14,190 nt of DNA from Candidatus Hermodarchaeota archaeon (GTDB lineage Archaea > Asgardarchaeota > Heimdallarchaeia > Hodarchaeales > Hodarchaeaceae): the NCBI GenBank assembly GCA_048886185.1, contig JBHLKY010000044.1, positions 1-14,190 of the forward strand. Direction: 5' to 3'. A program made the position numbers and the translations under genes. Below the pieces are notes generated by a model. The model was not told the origin of the DNA. It did no database searches and saw only the letters and a list, made by a program, of their open reading frames with translations. Shown here piece by piece: positions 2,106-12,456 of this stretch; within the stretch, counting starts at the first letter, position 1; each line of letters starts with the position of its first letter.

Positions 2106-2315
2106 AAACAATTGTGGAGTTCTTCAGGATGATTCACACCCTTTCAAATATCATTTTCAGGTTTTGACAAATTTATTTCTGACTAATATTGAATGAAAAA
2201 TTTATTGTAATTTTGACAACTAAAATCATTGTTGGAGCAAAAAACTAAAGAATAAAATAAAGGAGGACAATAAACGGGCAAACACCCCGATTATTTTGAG
2301 GAAAATGCATTGTCA

Positions 2316-2480
2316 ATGGTAGAATTACTTACAAAAGAAAATTACCCAGAATTATCAGGATCATGGGATATACCCTGCATGATTTGTGAGCATTTAGAAA
2401 AATGTAGCATAGGTCAGGAGTTCAATCCTATTGGTTGTCCCTGGTTAAACCATTATTTAGCAATGCAGTTAAATCCTTAA
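2316..2480 (+). CDS. 54-aa protein with an RPC34/TFE-beta-type four-Cys (putative 4Fe-4S) motif
   Basis: Below the ORF-track cutoff. MVELLTKENYPELSGSWDIPCMICEHLEKCSIGQEFNPIGCPWLNHYLAMQLNP*. Motif PC-x2-C-x5-C-x2-G-x4-P-x2-C-x2-L. GAGG at 2298-2301; an in-frame TTG at 2310 is an alternative start; T-rich tracts follow the stop. Confidence 0.75.
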   Translation: MVELLTKENYPELSGSWDIPCMICEHLEKCSIGQEFNPIGCPWLNHYLAMQLNP

Positions 2481-2537
2481 TCCTTTTCTGATTCCAATAC
2501 TCTTTTTGATATTATTGCAGCTTTTTCTTAGCCTCAT

Positions 2538-2551
2538 CAGAAATTTTTAAT
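2538..2551 (+). promoter_or_regulatory. Putative BRE-TATA promoter for a leaderless radical SAM transcript
   Basis: CAGAAA followed by TTTTTAAT (2544-2551), about 24-31 nt upstream of the ATG at 2575. No SD precedes that ATG. Confidence 0.4.
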
Positions 2552-2574
2552 TTATGTAATTTTGAATTACCTTT

Positions 2575-4023
2575 ATGAAATTAATTTTGATAGAACCTCC
2601 CAAACAATTCTGGTTTGTGATGGGGGACTATTTACCACCTCCTTACAGTCTTCTTCTCTTAGCTGCAGTAGTAGAGAAAGAACTACCTGATGTCGAGATA
2701 AAAGTTATTGACTCTCAAGCGGAAGAATTAGACTGGGCAGGGTTAAAAGAAAGGATTAAGAAAGAAAAAGCTGATATTATCGGTACGGGGAGTCACGCTA
2801 CCTGTAATGTGTATAAGACGATTCGTACGCTTAATCTTGCTAAACAGGTAGATCCAGAAGTAATCACCATTACTGGTGGATCACACTTCACCGTTCTCGA
2901 TGAGGAAACCTTAACTCAATACCCTTTCATTGATATTATTCTTCGTTATGAGGCAGAGAAGTCCCTTGTAGATTTATTAAGACATTTTCAGACTAATGGT
3001 ATGTCTAAAGATGGATTAAAGAATGTTAGAGGAATAGCATTCAGACAAAATGGTGAATTTCGAAGAACATCTGATTATCTCCCCCTAACAAACGATGAGT
3101 TGGATAATTTACCATATCCCGCGTATCATCTACTCCCAGATATGAAGCGATACCATTTTGCCATGATGAGTGATACACCCTACATTCTTCTTGAAGGGTC
3201 AAGAGGTTGCACACATCATTGTACATTCTGTTCTCAAACCACTTTTTATCGTCATCATTGGAGCACCAAATCAGTAAAGCGAATAGCTAATGAAATGGAG
3301 TGGATGTATGATACATTTGGTAGTCGATTCTTTTGGTTCACAGACGACAATTTCTGTGGAGGTTCTCCCCGAAGAATCGAAGAACTCTGTCAAGAGTTGT
3401 TAGCTCGTGGATTAAATGGTGATGATATTGAGTGGTTTGCTCAGATGAGGGCTGATAGTATTATTAAAGTTGGTGATGGATTATCCACAATGAACCGCAC
3501 AGGTAATTATTGGCAACTCGTGGGTGGAGAGTCCCCCTTTACAAGTGTATTAAACGATTTTAATAAAGGGATTCGCGGAGATCAAACAGTCATTGCAATA
3601 AAACTATTGAAAAGAAATAATATTTTGGCTCAACTTATGATCATGTTGGGTCATGAAAATGAAACACGAGAATCCATACAAAAGACCATGAAATGGGCAA
3701 CAGATGTCGTTAAACCAGATTTTATTATCACAATGCTAGTAACGCCATACCCTGGAACACCATTGTATGAGGATTTAAATCAGAAGGGACGGATCATTGA
3801 TAACAATTGGACGAATTATGATATGATTCATGCGGTTTGTGATATGAAATATCTCACAGCAGCTGAATTGCAGGAGGAACTGTATAAAGCTTATCGTCAT
3901 GTTTATGACAGTTGGTCCAGACGATTTGGAGGAATATTCTCAAAAAACAAGTATAAACGAAGAATCTTTTGGTATTACTTCAAAGCGGGCGTTATTGGTC
4001 AGCTTAGGCGATTAATTCCGTAG
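2575..4023 (+). CDS. Cobalamin (B12)-binding-domain radical SAM enzyme (class B methyltransferase/BchE-like)
   Basis: N-terminal B12-binding-like domain (LILIEPP...PPYSLLLLAA...ITITGGSHFT); CxxxCxxC in SRGCTHHCTFC; FTDDNF and TPYPGTPLY motifs; no C-terminal SPASM Cys cluster. Confidence 0.9.
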   Translation: MKLILIEPPKQFWFVMGDYLPPPYSLLLLAAVVEKELPDVEIKVIDSQAEELDWAGLKERIKKEKADIIGTGSHATCNVYKTIRTLNLAKQVDPEVITITGGSHFTVLDEETLTQYPFIDIILRYEAEKSLVDLLRHFQTNGMSKDGLKNVRGIAFRQNGEFRRTSDYLPLTNDELDNLPYPAYHLLPDMKRYHFAMMSDTPYILLEGSRGCTHHCTFCSQTTFYRHHWSTKSVKRIANEMEWMYDTFGSRFFWFTDDNFCGGSPRRIEELCQELLARGLNGDDIEWFAQMRADSIIKVGDGLSTMNRTGNYWQLVGGESPFTSVLNDFNKGIRGDQTVIAIKLLKRNNILAQLMIMLGHENETRESIQKTMKWATDVVKPDFIITMLVTPYPGTPLYEDLNQKGRIIDNNWTNYDMIHAVCDMKYLTAAELQEELYKAYRHVYDSWSRRFGGIFSKNKYKRRIFWYYFKAGVIGQLRRLIP

Positions 4024-4058: not shown

Positions 4059-4189
4059 TCAAACTTACAGATATTATCTAAAATAATAACTATCTGGCTT
4101 TTAGTGTGGTATTTTCTTGGATCTATCAAACTTACAGAGATTATCTAAAATAATAACTATCTGGCTTTTAGTGTGGTATTTTCTTGGAT
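4059..4189. repeat. Tandem direct repeat, 64 nt x2 with a 67-nt period and one mismatch
   Basis: 4059-4122 and 4126-4189 both read TCAAACTTACAGA(T/G)ATTATCTAAAATAATAACTATCTGGCTTTTAGTGTGGTATTTTCTTGGAT. Confidence 0.95.
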
Positions 4190-4524
4190 TCCTATATATG
4201 GTGATCTCATTTTTACCATCTGTATCAGTATGGAATATTCAAGAATCATTGAATTTTGAAGATAGTTCATTGAATATAGAAAGTAAAAGTATAGTGCAAG
4301 TATTACTATCTGCTGCGCTTTGGCCTATTATATTAGTCGCACTTCTCACAGTTGGTTTATTAATTGGGGGAGAAGTTGTTGGATACGAATATAGCTCGAA
4401 TATCCCGCTTCTCATCCTCTTGTACTATATTAAAGTGGTTCAAGCATTTCTAATTCTCTTTTTAACAGGAATTTTGTCTGGAATCATTGCATTACTTCTC
4501 ATAAGGCAAAGAATATTTAAGTAG
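4117..4524 (+). CDS. Small hypothetical membrane protein (about 3-4 TM helices)
   Basis: 135-aa ORF with several long hydrophobic stretches and a basic C-terminus (IRQRIFK). The TTG start lies at the junction of the tandem repeat. Confidence 0.65.
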   Translation: MDLSNLQRLSKIITIWLLVWYFLGFLYMVISFLPSVSVWNIQESLNFEDSSLNIESKSIVQVLLSAALWPIILVALLTVGLLIGGEVVGYEYSSNIPLLILLYYIKVVQAFLILFLTGILSGIIALLLIRQRIFK

Positions 4525-4575: not shown

Positions 4576-5415
4576 TCAATATTCCGCAAGATTACCTTCT
4601 TTTTTAGCAGCTTGAACTGTGCGACGAAAATACCAAATCCCTAGAAGAGGGAGAACAATTGCTGATACCACTACGATAACAAACTCAAATTCAAAGGGTA
4701 ATAACTCTGGTGCTTCTCCAATCATGACGGTCCGAAATAAATCCACACAGTAAGAAAGGGGAATTAATCGAGAGAACACTTGAATGAATTCAGGAAGAGC
4801 TGAGAAAGGAAAGAACATTGCACATACTATCATGAGAAGGAATTGAAGAAAGTTAGTAAAGGTATTCATAGATTCCTTATACTTCAAAGCGAGTCCAGCA
4901 AATCCAAATGAAAAACCAAAACATACAAAAAGGCTAAAGAACAATACAATAAGACCAAAACCTAAATTTGCAAGAGGTAACTGGCCAAACACGAGAGACA
5001 TGAAGAAAAAAGTGACAATTACATTGAGGCCTGTCCACATAAGATTAGCAAAGATCCTGGAAACTAATGTAGAGAAGTAGCTGATAGGGGTCATGAATAA
5101 GGACTCTAAAGTGCCTTGATATTGTTCCTCTCGTAACGAATTGCCTATATCCCAAAGCGCTGTAGAAAGAAACATAAATAAGATAAAGGAATAAAACATT
5201 ATACCAATCCCATAAGAAGCCTTATCTGGGGGAGTCAAGACTAATGCTGCTACCGTAAAAATGAACATAATGAAAAAAATCTGGAAAAAACTTAAGATAA
5301 AGGATAATTTGTAACGTGTTAATACAGTGAATTCTTTTTTTGTCATAGACCAGAATTGATTCCACCACAGTTGAAAACCATGTACTTGTTGTTTATTGAG
5401 AGAGATAATAGCCAT
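4576..5415 (-). CDS. ABC-2 type exporter permease
   Basis: About 6 TM segments; EEQYQGTLESLFMTP; MFFPFSALP...LIPLSYCVDLFR. AGGAGG SD overlaps the upstream gene's TAG stop. Confidence 0.92.
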   Translation of the reverse strand: MAIISLNKQQVHGFQLWWNQFWSMTKKEFTVLTRYKLSFILSFFQIFFIMFIFTVAALVLTPPDKASYGIGIMFYSFILFMFLSTALWDIGNSLREEQYQGTLESLFMTPISYFSTLVSRIFANLMWTGLNVIVTFFFMSLVFGQLPLANLGFGLIVLFFSLFVCFGFSFGFAGLALKYKESMNTFTNFLQFLLMIVCAMFFPFSALPEFIQVFSRLIPLSYCVDLFRTVMIGEAPELLPFEFEFVIVVVSAIVLPLLGIWYFRRTVQAAKKEGNLAEY

Positions 5416-5427
5416 GATTATTTCCTC

Positions 5428-6291
5428 CTAAAATTGTCCAATTCCCTCTGCTCTTTTACTCCTTGCTTCTGTCTTAGCAAAGAGCCAGTATCCGATGAGG
5501 GGGCAAATGATAGCAAAAGCAAAGAGTACACCTAAATCCAGAAATATATTACCAAAAAGCCACTTAAGACCAGTAAGCGCTGCCTGAATATCGTGAGTAA
5601 CATAAAAACCTGGGAACATGAAAGCAAAAAGCTGTATAAAAAGTGGTAACACAGTAACGGGAAAGAAAACACCAGAGATTATTGCTAAGGGCCATTGGAA
5701 CGTGTTGAAAATAGTATTGGCTTGTTTAACCTTCAAAACTAGCGCACCAAGAAGGAAAGATAAACCATTAACAGGGATCAATCCTAGGAGAAGGATAAAT
5801 AGTGCTAAGAGTACTTGTCCTTGTAGTGGATTGACTCCGAAAATGATACAACCTAAAGCATATCCTAGTACAAATGTGAAAAGGGATCTTGCTTCCACAT
5901 AAAGTGTCAATCCCGCTAAAATAGAAAGTTTATGGGCAGGAGACATAAATAGAGATTCAAGAGTTCCAAGAGTCTGCTCACGACGAATGAAAAGACCGAA
6001 GAGCCAGAATGAAGTCATTATAGATGAAAAAACATTTGCCCCAATAATAATAAAAGCGATGTAGTTTGCTTCACTTAAACCAGTATTTTTTTGGAAGTTA
6101 GCAGACGCAGCAGCAGTGGAACCAGCCATAGCTTGGCCTAATAAAATAGGCATGGCGGCCAGAAACAATGGTGTGAGAACATCCATGAATAAAGCTCCCT
6201 TATACCGTGAAATGACCTTTAATCGAACAATAAATGTCCCCCATAATACTCCTAGATGGCTGCTAAAAGAAATATCAGTTGATAGTACCAT
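5428..6291 (-). CDS. ABC-2 type exporter permease
   Basis: REQTLGTLESLFMSP; ISGVFFPVTVLP; multiple TM helices; GAGGT SD. Confidence 0.92.
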   Translation of the reverse strand: MVLSTDISFSSHLGVLWGTFIVRLKVISRYKGALFMDVLTPLFLAAMPILLGQAMAGSTAAASANFQKNTGLSEANYIAFIIIGANVFSSIMTSFWLFGLFIRREQTLGTLESLFMSPAHKLSILAGLTLYVEARSLFTFVLGYALGCIIFGVNPLQGQVLLALFILLLGLIPVNGLSFLLGALVLKVKQANTIFNTFQWPLAIISGVFFPVTVLPLFIQLFAFMFPGFYVTHDIQAALTGLKWLFGNIFLDLGVLFAFAIICPLIGYWLFAKTEARSKRAEGIGQF

Positions 6292-7351: not shown

Positions 7352-7389
7352 GAGTAAGTAACCTTCAATTGAGTTTATGAAAATGAGAC

Positions 7390-7429
7390 TGTAATAAAAT
7401 TACATTAACTGTTTTGTATTAAAATTACA
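7390..7429. promoter_or_regulatory. Two palindromic operator-like sites upstream of the ABC operon
   Basis: TGTAAT-AAA-ATTACA (7390-7404, perfect 6-bp arms) and TGTATT-AAA-ATTACA (7415-7429, one mismatch), 25 nt apart and 39-78 nt upstream of the ATG at 7351. Confidence 0.6.
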
Positions 7430-7896
7430 GAAAGCATTTAAATAGCCTTTCGTTTCGGCAATCCTCCTCTGGCGATATAAAATCTCACTTAGCTGAAACT
7501 AATTTTAGATTCGCTTTTCTTTATCGGTTAAAACTCTTCTTTTTAGAATCGAACTCAATAATCTAAGAGATCACCATATTTAGGGAAATATTATTCTCTA
7601 AATTGGTAACCATTTTAGATTTTGCCACAGATTTTAGTATAATAGAAAATGATACCTAGAAGGAATTTATTGAGCCTTAAAAGTTGGATAGTGTTAAGTT
7701 CTTTCTTCAAAAAGCTTTTTCTCAACACAGAAAATGGAGAGAAATACTATTGATCTTCCTTTTCCTATCTCGTTGCCAAATTTCTTATAATACGGGCTGT
7801 AACACTGGATATAGCAATTATTTAAGAAATAAGATTGATTTCATTTAGAAATATGTCTGTATTAGCTTAAATAGCTACTGATGTCATTTATTCTCA

Positions 7897-8009
7897 GGAC
7901 AGAAATGTGGAGATACTAGTCGGTCACATTCAGTCGCATCAGACCTGCTAGTCCGAATAGCCTCATGGCTTTCCTTGCGACTCTTTCTGTCATGTAACTC
8001 TTTTTCTTT
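7897..8009 (+). ncRNA. Candidate structured small RNA or cis-regulatory leader, family not recognised
   Basis: Nested helices: GACAGAAA/TTTCTGTC, AGTCGCA/TGCGACT, AATGTG/CACATT, AGCC/GGCT and GAC/GTC. TATA-like TTAAATAG at 7867-7874 and a T-rich tract at 7999-8009. The strand is not certain. Confidence 0.45.
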
Positions 8010-8020
8010 GGTGAGTCTTC

Positions 8021-8158
8021 ATGCCTTCCAATCCTAAAAACTCATCAAACAGTTCTGATAAACATAAATCTCCTAATTCCGACCATTTGCACCCTTTAGA
8101 ACGTAAATACGGGAAAGAACCGAAGATTAAAATGGAAAATTTATGGTATTGGCACTAA
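8021..8158 (+). CDS. 45-aa small protein of unknown function
   Basis: MPSNPKNSSNSSDKHKSPNSDHLHPLERKYGKEPKIKMENLWYWH*. Archaeal-type SD GGTGA at 8010-8014, 6 nt before the ATG. Confidence 0.5.
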   Translation: MPSNPKNSSNSSDKHKSPNSDHLHPLERKYGKEPKIKMENLWYWH

Positions 8159-8222
8159 TCCTGCAAATATGAATCCTTAATCTATCTTCTAGAAATTTAG
8201 AAGTGGAATAATTGACCATAAG

Positions 8223-8537
8223 ATGGTGAACATCTTTTCTTTAGGATGTCATTTTTTGGTACAACCAGAAGATAATTCATATATTTATTGTCTAATGTTG
8301 AAAATCTGGAATGAACCATTTCCTCCACAATATCAATATACAGAACCTGGTAGTCTTGAAGAGGTTGAGATCTAGCGATATTCTTCTGATTATAACCAAT
8401 TCACGAAATATAGCAATCTAAGTGGTGAGGCAGAGTATTGGTATAAATTCAATTTCACGAATAATCCTCCTTGTCATAATGGAAATGCCACGCCATGTTT
8501 TTGGGCACATTATTTATGTTGGAAATTACTTATTTAG
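8223..8537 (+). pseudogene. Possible gene remnant: 104-codon frame broken by one TAG
   Basis: ATG at 8223 to TAG at 8373-8375, then 53 more open codons in frame to TAG at 8535-8537. Tyr/Asn/Trp/Pro-rich and protein-like, but no family recognised. Confidence 0.3.
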
Positions 8538-8550
8538 CCATTTGATAATC

Positions 8551-9441
8551 TCACTCATCCCACTCATACTCATCCTCAAGGTCGTGAAATTCAATATCAA
8601 TAGTACTCACTGGAGCTCCTTTCTTCTTCGGATAGGGTATGAAAAAAATGTCTGACCGCTGTATCTTCCCACGGAGAGCGAAGAGCGCTATCGCGAATAA
8701 TCCCCAGAGGTACAGGATGAATGCGACTGTTCCGACCAAAATAGCTATGAAAAAATCTGTAGTACGCCAGAATGTGTCGAGAGTGAACACAATCAGTACG
8801 ATCACAGCATTGAAAATATAGATCGGACGGATATTCAAATTTAGGATGATTGTGTTAAGGATAAAGAGCCAATCATTTAGAGTGGGCATCATGACGCCAA
8901 AAATGCCCATAAAGAAGTAAAAGTGAATAGCTGCGCCCGCCACTGTTGTCAAAACCTGTGTGAGGGGGGTAACCAACGCCAAGGGGGAAATTACTAGATA
9001 CCCGATCAATAATACCCATCCAAACCGGTTGGGGGCCATAGCAACCTTTTGAGCATATCCAATACGGTTGAAGGAGGTGATTAACATTGAATTCTCATCA
9101 TTGCGACTAAGACCTGTGGCAAAGCTTGAACGAAGGATGTATTGGTCATGAATATCGTCATAATCGTCCTCTTCCTCATTTTTCTTCTGATCAAGGATCT
9201 GAACAAGTTCTTTGGCACTATAGACATGAAGATAGACATGAAGGAAACGAAAGGGAAACCAAAGGGCGTTGATGAGGGATTTGATGAATGGCAAGAAGTG
9301 CATGACTAACTGAAGTAGGAAGTACATAAACAGCTGCCGTACAAAAAACGCGAGTATGTCGCTCGGATCAAGGACTTCCTGGGAATACCACTGGAAAAAT
9401 CCAATTAATCCTAATGCAATGAGGTCTAATGGTGTGGTTAT
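8551..9441 (-). CDS. Polytopic membrane protein, M50/site-2-protease-like with a degenerate HExxH motif (HVYLH); probable start ATA at 9441 (ORF track uses ATG at 9327)
   Basis: The frame is open upstream of 9327 as far as 9483. GGAGG at 9453-9449 sits 7 nt before ATA at 9441. Motifs FPFRFLHVYLHVYSA, MAP and MMPTLND; acidic loop and acidic C-tail. Confidence 0.7.
   Translation of the reverse strand: MTTPLDLIALGLIGFFQWYSQEVLDPSDILAFFVRQLFMYFLLQLVMHFLPFIKSLINALWFPFRFLHVYLHVYSAKELVQILDQKKNEEEDDYDDIHDQYILRSSFATGLSRNDENSMLITSFNRIGYAQKVAMAPNRFGWVLLIGYLVISPLALVTPLTQVLTTVAGAAIHFYFFMGIFGVMMPTLNDWLFILNTIILNLNIRPIYIFNAVIVLIVFTLDTFWRTTDFFIAILVGTVAFILYLWGLFAIALFALRGKIQRSDIFFIPYPKKKGAPVSTIDIEFHDLEDEYEWDE
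9220..9243. repeat. Exact 12-nt tandem repeat encoding LHVY-LHVY
   Basis: ATAGACATGAAG x2 on the + strand. Confidence 0.9.
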
Positions 9442-11751: not shown

Positions 11752-12456
11752 ATGAAGAATAGAGGGGCATCCCGAGGAACATCAAAAGGCACGTCATTAC
11801 GACCAGATACTAAATTACGTGCTAAAATCGTTCTCATTGGCGATGGAGGTGTTGGTAAGACTGCTCTCCGCCGCGCATGGTTGGGTGAAGGATTTAAGAC
11901 AGAATACCTTATGACAATAGGTGCTGACTTTGCTTCCCAAGAAATCTCTTTATATTATTCAGAAACCAAATCGACATATGATTTAAAGTTTCAAATATGG
12001 GATCTTGCAGGTCAACCACGATTTAAGGCTGTTAGAGATCTTTACTATCGGGGTGCAATCGGGGCTTTGTGTTTTTTTGACATTACAAATCAGGAATCAT
12101 ATATGAACCTTGTAGAATGGATCCAATCATATTGGGCGTTAAATGGTCTTGGTAAAGCGCCCCTTCTCATCATTGGTGCTAAATGTGACTTACGTGATAA
12201 TCCTGCTTTTCCAAGCCAAGTTTCTGCTCGTTATGGCAAGGAATATGCCGCTGAACTAACTAAACTCTTGCAACATAAGTATGGGTTCAGTGTCCATTAT
12301 ATAGAGACATCTGCGAAGGAAAACATTAATGTAGATAAAGCATTTAAAATTCTAGCAACAGAGATTATTCGAAGTACAATCCATCAAGAAAAGCTACGGA
12401 ATGACCGTAAAACTAGTCAAAAAAATATGCTGACCGACCAGCTTCGATCTAGGTAA
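11752..12456 (+). CDS. Rab-like small GTPase (Ras superfamily; Asgard eukaryotic signature protein type)
   Basis: G1 GDGGVGKT, G2 MTIGADF, G3 WDLAGQ, G4 GAKCD (atypical), G5 ETSAK. RabF-like motifs IGADF, KFQIW, RFKAVR, YYRGA and FFDIT. No C-terminal Cys prenylation motif. Confidence 0.95.
   Translation: MKNRGASRGTSKGTSLRPDTKLRAKIVLIGDGGVGKTALRRAWLGEGFKTEYLMTIGADFASQEISLYYSETKSTYDLKFQIWDLAGQPRFKAVRDLYYRGAIGALCFFDITNQESYMNLVEWIQSYWALNGLGKAPLLIIGAKCDLRDNPAFPSQVSARYGKEYAAELTKLLQHKYGFSVHYIETSAKENINVDKAFKILATEIIRSTIHQEKLRNDRKTSQKNMLTDQLRSR

Follow-up and report, generated by a model that had tools for sequence, protein, structure and literature searches.

A TFE-beta reduced to its Fe-S domain is probably the only TFE-beta of a Hodarchaeales archaeon

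A gene of 54 to 56 codons on the plus strand of the window (the whole 14,190-nt stretch of Hodarchaeales DNA analysed here) encodes what appears to be the Fe-S domain of the transcription initiation factor TFE-beta, stripped of its winged helix. The interpretation that best accommodates our results, to which we assign a probability of about 0.7, is that this protein (mini-TFE-beta) is the sole, N-terminally shortened TFE-beta orthologue of its genome and that it acts as a natural minimal TFE-beta, a cluster-bearing plug that completes TFE-alpha and helps to hold it on the clamp. The gene and its flanking elements are located as follows.

2310..2480 (+): winged-helix-less TFE-beta gene, 56 aa from TTG 2310 or 54 aa from ATG 2316
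2373..2459 (+): Fe-S domain core, P20 to L48 (54-aa numbering)
2376-2378, 2385-2387, 2403-2405 and 2436-2438 (+): codons for C21, C24, C30 and C41, putative 4Fe-4S ligands
2478-2480 (+): stop codon TAA of the mini-TFE-beta gene
2271..2273 (+): in-frame TAA, 13 codons upstream of TTG 2310
2298..2301 (+): GAGG, Shine-Dalgarno-like by its sequence, 8 nt upstream of TTG 2310
2247..2261 (+): A/T-rich box AAAGAATAAAATAAA, putative promoter of TATA/BRE type, conserved in part among aligned upstream regions
2481..2574 (+): spacer of 94 nt, followed by the radical SAM gene; it contains T-runs at ~2503-2507 and ~2523-2527

Translation of 2316-2480 (+) reproduced the 54-aa frame that a first-pass annotation had picked out, with the Cys spacing C-x2-C-x5-C-x10-C and a 29-residue motif. 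At most 14 codons are open upstream of ATG 2316, and the TAA at 2271-2273, also recorded in that annotation, closes the frame so that a winged helix cannot be encoded in it; only 19 to 21 residues precede the motif. The ORF list gives the gene as 2310-2480 from TTG, and TTG 2310 is more likely than ATG 2316 to be the start, in which case the product would begin MSM. We prefer it because the orthologues begin MSM, because one of them has ATG at that position (the codon is TTG or ATG among ten aligned orthologous upstream regions), because the GAGG 8 nt 5′ of the start is invariant in the same ten regions, and because a public protein collection holds a 56-aa product 100% identical to the query (P0002). 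The A/T-rich box, ~50–60 nt upstream of the start, is partly conserved in this alignment, and the gene would appear to have its own promoter and to form a separate transcription unit. The T-runs in 2481..2574 look similar to archaeal oligo-T terminators and could serve as such. Rfam and ARAGORN searches of the window gave no matches. Four sediment metagenome runs of one study are listed as containing the DNA of the window, and no RNA run is listed as containing it.

Conservation indicates that the reading frame is a constrained gene. All four Cys residues are kept in seven close homologues of 53–59 aa, in which W17, P20, G33, N37-P38-I39-G40 and W43 are also kept; with the four Cys, P20, W17, G33, N37-P38 and G40 unchanged in all seven, the ORF is not a product of chance. 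Across 57 Asgard sequences P20, C21, C24, C30 and C41 are invariant. Among 20 orthologues of the order, median dN is 0.14, median dS 1.4 and median dN/dS 0.09, the ratio being taken over the 87 pairs in which dS is not saturated, as it is in the other 103. The mini-TFE-beta gene is thus protein-coding and under strong purifying selection. The suggestion that it is short enough to be missed by gene callers did not hold, since NCBI Hodarchaeota MAGs include called orthologues under the name 'hypothetical protein'; two of the seven close homologues carry this label, one in an NCBI Hodarchaeota MAG and one in a JGI record. The gene is therefore unannotated in the sense that it has no functional annotation, but not in the sense that it has been overlooked.

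Assignment to the TFE-beta/RPC34 family depends on profiles. As a single sequence, the 54-aa protein (P0001) returned no family from Pfam, NCBIfam or the PDB, and a shared-word search for longer homologues found none. An exhaustive profile search recovered more distant small relatives of 45–102 aa, plus one of 259 aa, which have in common the pattern P-C-x2-C-x5-C-G-x-G-Q-x3-P-x2-C-x3-N-x-W-L. Seven of ten distant relatives match the last 40–60 positions of Pfam PF05158 (RNA_pol_Rpc34) at E values of 7e-5 to 0.2, and 14 of 31 family members match PF05158 below its gathering score (best E 2e-6). Where per-protein coordinates are listed, the Fe-S-only relatives align with the C-terminal end of PF05158 and the long protein L022 with its winged-helix part. 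Two Fe-S-only profiles that include the window protein, A2 and A6 (the latter built from the 57 Asgard sequences), both have human RPC6 residues 284-315 as their top PDB match, at E 2.2e-5 and 3.2e-5, respectively. When long Asgard forms were added (A3), RPC6 was matched at E 1.1e-12, with both the winged helix and the Fe-S stretch aligned. The columns that align with RPC6 comprise the P-C pair, the four Cys, the internal Pro and the W-L that follows the last Cys. The link of the short protein to RPC6 is one of family profiles, at E of about 1e-5 over 32 residues, and on this footing homology to the RPC6/TFE-beta Fe-S domain holds. The first-pass annotation had recognised the RPC34/TFE-beta relationship and a free-standing Fe-S domain of the RPC34/RPC39/TFE-beta type in an Asgard archaeon; the profile matches, together with the lack of room for a winged helix, bear this out.

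A LIM or zinc-finger assignment was considered and rejected. Matches to TESTIN (E 0.0036–0.12) stop short of C41 and take in just three of the four Cys, and they were outranked by RPC6 once the profile was broadened; a LIM domain needs eight Zn ligands in two fingers, and the protein has four Cys and a His26 that is not conserved. By analogy with the family, the four invariant Cys would bind a cubane 4Fe-4S cluster, although the same residues may hold Zn in place of Fe-S. AlphaFold2 models of the small protein reached a pLDDT of 54 with 7 sequences and 67.7 with 57. With the model as query, Foldseek found no match in the PDB and a wide VIA-align search gave none at Z of 2 or more; these nulls say little, because a 54-residue, cluster-dependent domain was modelled without its metal.

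The distribution of the family across Asgard genomes bears on whether the short gene is an orthologue or a paralogue of TFE-beta. Exactly one match to the Fe-S profile was present in 78 of 81 sampled Asgard genomes (E 1e-13 to 1e-6 for the full-length examples L015, L022 and L035). Loci outside the window's class mostly encode proteins of 109–127 aa in which an N-terminal MarR-like winged helix is followed by the Fe-S motif, and at least 75 residues precede the motif in 24 of 29 loci fetched from other families. Within the window's order, to which NCBI labels on homologues give the name Hodarchaeales, a single match was obtained in each of 20 of the 24 genomes. The stop-to-stop frames of these matches are 56–107 aa and leave no space for a winged helix, upstream stops are found in all 20 loci, and only about 20–46 residues lie between the likely start and the motif in the extracted sequences. 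The source genome, which is 96% complete, has a single copy of the Fe-S domain, and a search of it with PF05158 gave nothing above the cut-off and no full-length TFE-beta candidate. No copy was detected in the remaining four of the 24 genomes of the order (71–94% complete), roughly what incompleteness predicts, but the gene could be dispensable there or lie in unassembled DNA.

These counts contradict the proposal, made in the first-pass annotation, that the gene is a short paralogue whose product vies with full-length TFE-beta for TFE-alpha and modulates transcription in response to redox state. It is through this domain that TFE-beta binds TFE-alpha, and the predicted complex described below (0.76 versus 0.00 for the best control) is compatible with the first step of such a scheme. 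Yet neither a full-length TFE-beta nor a second Fe-S domain is found in the source genome at 96% completeness, no full-length form turned up in any of the order's 20 genomes with the gene, and one copy per genome is the rule across the phylum. With no full-length TFE-beta in the source genome there is nothing to compete with, and the gene is an orthologue that has been shortened; we regard competition as highly improbable.

Several other matches met in these searches were set aside. The second-best Fe-S profile match in the source genome (C19) is a PP-loop ATPase with a chance P-C-x2-C, and of the sub-threshold matches to the PF05158 winged helix, in a membrane protein and one other ORF, neither is TFE-beta. 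Elsewhere in the phylum, L033 (G004:C141) and several other matches have an in-frame stop within or just upstream of the match, which could reflect a frameshift, an assembly error or a pseudogene.

The window protein has no N-terminal winged helix. Every copy in the order is short, and across Hodarchaeales the loss of this domain is fixed. For this reason we class the protein as a variant and not as a canonical TFE-beta/RPC34 member. A winged helix encoded by a separate gene could in principle join the Fe-S module in trans. Winged-helix proteins are numerous and fast-diverging, and a detached one could escape a profile search; still, a profile of Asgard TFE-beta winged helices (A4) found only an Lrp/AsnC regulator and a generic wHTH protein in the source genome, at E of at least 0.03, and a profile of the N-terminal domain of sister-order proteins (A8) found nothing there at E up to 1. 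A split gene therefore seems improbable to us.

The sister orders, in the same class, have proteins of 142–184 aa with a divergent N-terminal domain of 90–105 aa whose pattern looks winged-helix-like. Alignment of this domain with the canonical Asgard TFE-beta winged helix by hhalign fell into a sensible register but was not significant (E 0.026, probability 2%). The N-termini of full-length Asgard TFE-beta proteins match PF05158 positions 90-135, MarR and DUF7646. Short forms also occur in lineages outside the window's order. An 85-aa protein of family f21 (L034:1498-1752, minus strand, G061) has 48 residues before the motif and one of family f18 (L041:1342-1725, plus strand, G025) has 59; their N-termini are short or of low complexity, and neither has a recognisable winged helix. 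From these two cases, reduction of the winged helix may have occurred more than once, independently. A longer form is seen as well: in family f10, TFE-beta is ~200 aa, represented by L024:1096-1704 (plus strand, G077), with open frames of about 205–228 aa at the other sampled loci. The L024 protein has an extra N-terminal, zinc-ribbon-like C-x2-C...H-x-C segment before the winged helix, and its third Cys gap is 12 residues instead of 10.

In the window, the neighbours of the mini-TFE-beta gene are nadB (L-aspartate oxidase) on one side and, on the other, a gene for a BchE-like radical SAM enzyme that binds B12. This position raises another explanation, namely that the small protein serves the adjacent enzyme as substrate or partner, as a precursor peptide of the RiPP type or an Fe-S accessory protein might. 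The radical SAM gene is directly downstream on the same strand in the window and at three other loci (L003, L004 and L005), and an ABC-2 exporter is encoded near the mini-TFE-beta locus. Every locus with this pairing, however, belongs to one genus, and five loci of that genus (L058, L059, L060, L062 and L065) have no radical SAM gene downstream. At L072 (G096:C342) and L073 (G088:C121), again of the same genus and from two of the order's four genomes that show no copy, the orthologous radical SAM gene is assembled with a different upstream neighbour and no small gene, and mini-TFE-beta was not detected anywhere in these two assemblies, which are 91–94% complete. More distant copies, in the order's sister family and in other Hodarchaeales-labelled MAGs, adjoin genes for SRP19, FtsJ, Sec61-beta, GlmS or TFB. 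Finally, the peptide is conserved along its whole length, as a folded domain would be, and is homologous to RPC6/TFE-beta. A role as radical SAM partner or substrate is accordingly one to which we give little credence. In the source genome FtsJ directly follows SRP19 with no small gene between them, which is consistent with one gene that was relocated and not with two paralogues.

Other features of the window were recorded in passing. The radical SAM enzyme itself (2575-4023, plus strand) is a B12-binding protein of 482 aa with 66–83% identity across the genus; among NCBIfam models it is most similar to BchE, although its 217 bits fall far short of the 481-bit cut-off, and to HpnJ. Just after its stop codon, at 4059-4189, is a 67-bp direct tandem duplication (2.0 copies, 98% identical) that overlaps the start of a 135-aa ORF at 4117-4524. 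A stretch of ~1.2 kb at 7352-8550, between an ABC transporter ATPase gene and a 258-aa ORF on the minus strand (8551-9327), has no ORF of at least 60 aa wholly inside it, no tRNA and no Rfam match. A Ras/Roc-family small GTPase of 234 aa is encoded at 11752-12456 on the plus strand (PF00071, E 2e-39).

The putative partner of mini-TFE-beta, TFE-alpha, was found in 36 of 41 sampled Asgard genomes and is strongly conserved in the order; in the source genome it is encoded at L043:1261-1890 on the minus strand, where PF02002 matches above its cut-off with 44.5 bits. Relative to other Asgard proteins, this TFE-alpha has a short acidic insertion and a C-terminal tail that is ~17 residues longer. Structure prediction of TFE-alpha with a 4Fe-4S cluster and mini-TFE-beta gave a complex score of 0.76, as opposed to 0.00 for the best control, and so passed; the mark was attained by 58 of the 80 solved complexes and by 2 of the 110 mismatched pairs in a calibration that used neither ligands nor user-made alignments. 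Runs agreed in at least 61% of contacts, with a partner pLDDT of at least 73, and the predicted interface on TFE-alpha involves the N-terminal helix, residues 99-116 and the C-terminal tail at 158-170. The score may reflect likeness to known structures, because RPC3–RPC6 structures have been solved (e.g. 7a6h). Together with the profile matches to RPC6 284-315, the modelled complex makes binding of mini-TFE-beta to TFE-alpha plausible; the interaction, which the first-pass annotation had also proposed, is a predicted one. The genes for TFE-alpha and TFE-beta are no more than about 4 kb apart in family f16 (TFE-alpha 1123-1575 and TFE-beta 5325-5450 in G020:C208; TFE-beta 34734-34850 and TFE-alpha 38582-39085 in G031:C88), and this proximity lends mild independent support to the idea of a functional pair.

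Comparison with characterised systems places the short form in context. The published TFE-beta plan is a winged helix followed by the Fe-S domain. TFE-beta of Saccharolobus solfataricus resembles mini-TFE-beta in its C-terminal four-Cys domain, in which the spacing is identical and a cubane cluster is held by C92, C95, C101 and C112 (PMC4495717), and in being single-copy per genome; it differs in having a winged helix, whereas the window protein, known from sequence, has ~20 residues before its first Cys. The winged helix (residues 1-73) is dispensable for dimerisation, clamp binding and open-complex formation (Blombach et al. 2015, PMC4495717), and an engineered protein lacking these residues is the laboratory equivalent of the natural mini-TFE-beta. 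The Fe-S domain and its cysteines, on the other hand, are essential for dimerisation with TFE-alpha, and the minimal complex joins this domain to the winged helix and tail of TFE-alpha (PMC4495717). In RPC6/RPC39 (yeast C34; PF05158) the Fe-S domain is likewise at the extreme C-terminus (human residues 284-315), where it aligns with the family profile and serves as an interaction hub for RPC3, RPC7 and the RPC1 clamp in human Pol III (bioRxiv 10.1101/2020.06.29.177642). RPC6 differs in being a stable polymerase subunit of 316 aa with three winged helices, and the window protein by itself falls below every Pfam threshold. Full-length Asgard TFE-beta proteins (L015, L022 and L035; 110–127 aa) share the Fe-S motif and belong to the same single-copy family but have the N-terminal MarR-like winged helix. 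Lineage-specific reduction of the two-domain TFE-beta/RPC34 plan is also seen in haloarchaeal TFE-beta (Haloferax volcanii, PMC5861453) and in S. cerevisiae C34, but in the opposite sense: there the winged helix remains, and the cysteines and cluster are gone. The whole TFE-beta gene is absent from several euryarchaeal lineages and DPANN, and TFE-beta is present in Asgard archaea (PMC7289017). We found no description of a TFE-beta form without a winged helix in Asgard archaea in the literature searched, although one may still have been published.

Based on these comparisons, we infer cluster binding, TFE-alpha binding and activity in initiation for a protein that would consist of the C-terminal four-Cys domain preceded by a short conserved N-terminal linker. 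By homology, the four Cys would hold the cubane 4Fe-4S cluster; the folded domain would dock onto TFE-alpha, encoded elsewhere in the genome, and probably also onto the RNA polymerase clamp. Sensitivity of the cluster to oxidants would be inherited from the family. The redox or iron responsiveness suggested in the first-pass annotation is not peculiar to the short form: sensitivity to redox state or iron has been published for the cluster of Saccharolobus TFE-beta (PMC4495717). Since the Saccharolobus winged helix adds stability to the pre-initiation complex (PMC4495717), a form without it might be weaker or need compensation, and no clear compensating feature was found.

The same difference could instead mean that the protein descends from TFE-beta but has been repurposed, with no role in initiation, as a free redox or iron sensor or as a partner of some other protein. 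Besides the missing winged helix, such a change would suit the movement of the gene, within one genus, from housekeeping neighbourhoods (SRP19, Sec61-beta, TFB) to a metabolic locus, as well as the four of 24 genomes of the order that show no copy. It fits less well with a gene that is single-copy in genomes where no other TFE-beta is present and that is under strong purifying selection. The modelled TFE-alpha interface, moreover, is confident and falls on regions implicated by biochemistry, and in vitro the core activity of TFE-beta needs no more than the Fe-S domain (PMC4495717). On balance we consider repurposing unlikely and retain a natural minimal TFE-beta as the preferred interpretation. 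Its extension to the whole order, that all Hodarchaeales initiate transcription with a TFE whose beta subunit is only a ~55-residue 4Fe-4S plug, is one that we lean towards by a small degree.

Through TFE-beta, RPC34 and TFIIE-beta, the initiation machinery of archaea is linked with that of eukaryotes, and recent phylogenies put the order Hodarchaeales near the eukaryotic stem. Retention of the cluster domain with loss of the winged helix is the opposite of the reductions described so far. Full-length Pfam surveys are likely to score such genomes as lacking TFE-beta, because PF05158 finds nothing above its cut-off in the source genome; re-annotation is now possible for the 'hypothetical protein' records of Hodarchaeales MAGs and of some other Asgard ones. 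As a natural counterpart of the engineered deletion, mini-TFE-beta tests the TFE-alpha winged helix plus the TFE-beta Fe-S domain as the functional core, and it offers a 55-residue model for studying the Fe-S interaction hub. If the order-wide reading is true, the winged helix would be dispensable in vivo, with the somewhat longer tail of TFE-alpha, or some other factor that contacts DNA, possibly making up for its loss, and the oxidation-labile cluster domain would be the irreducible core of TFE-beta/RPC34 function.
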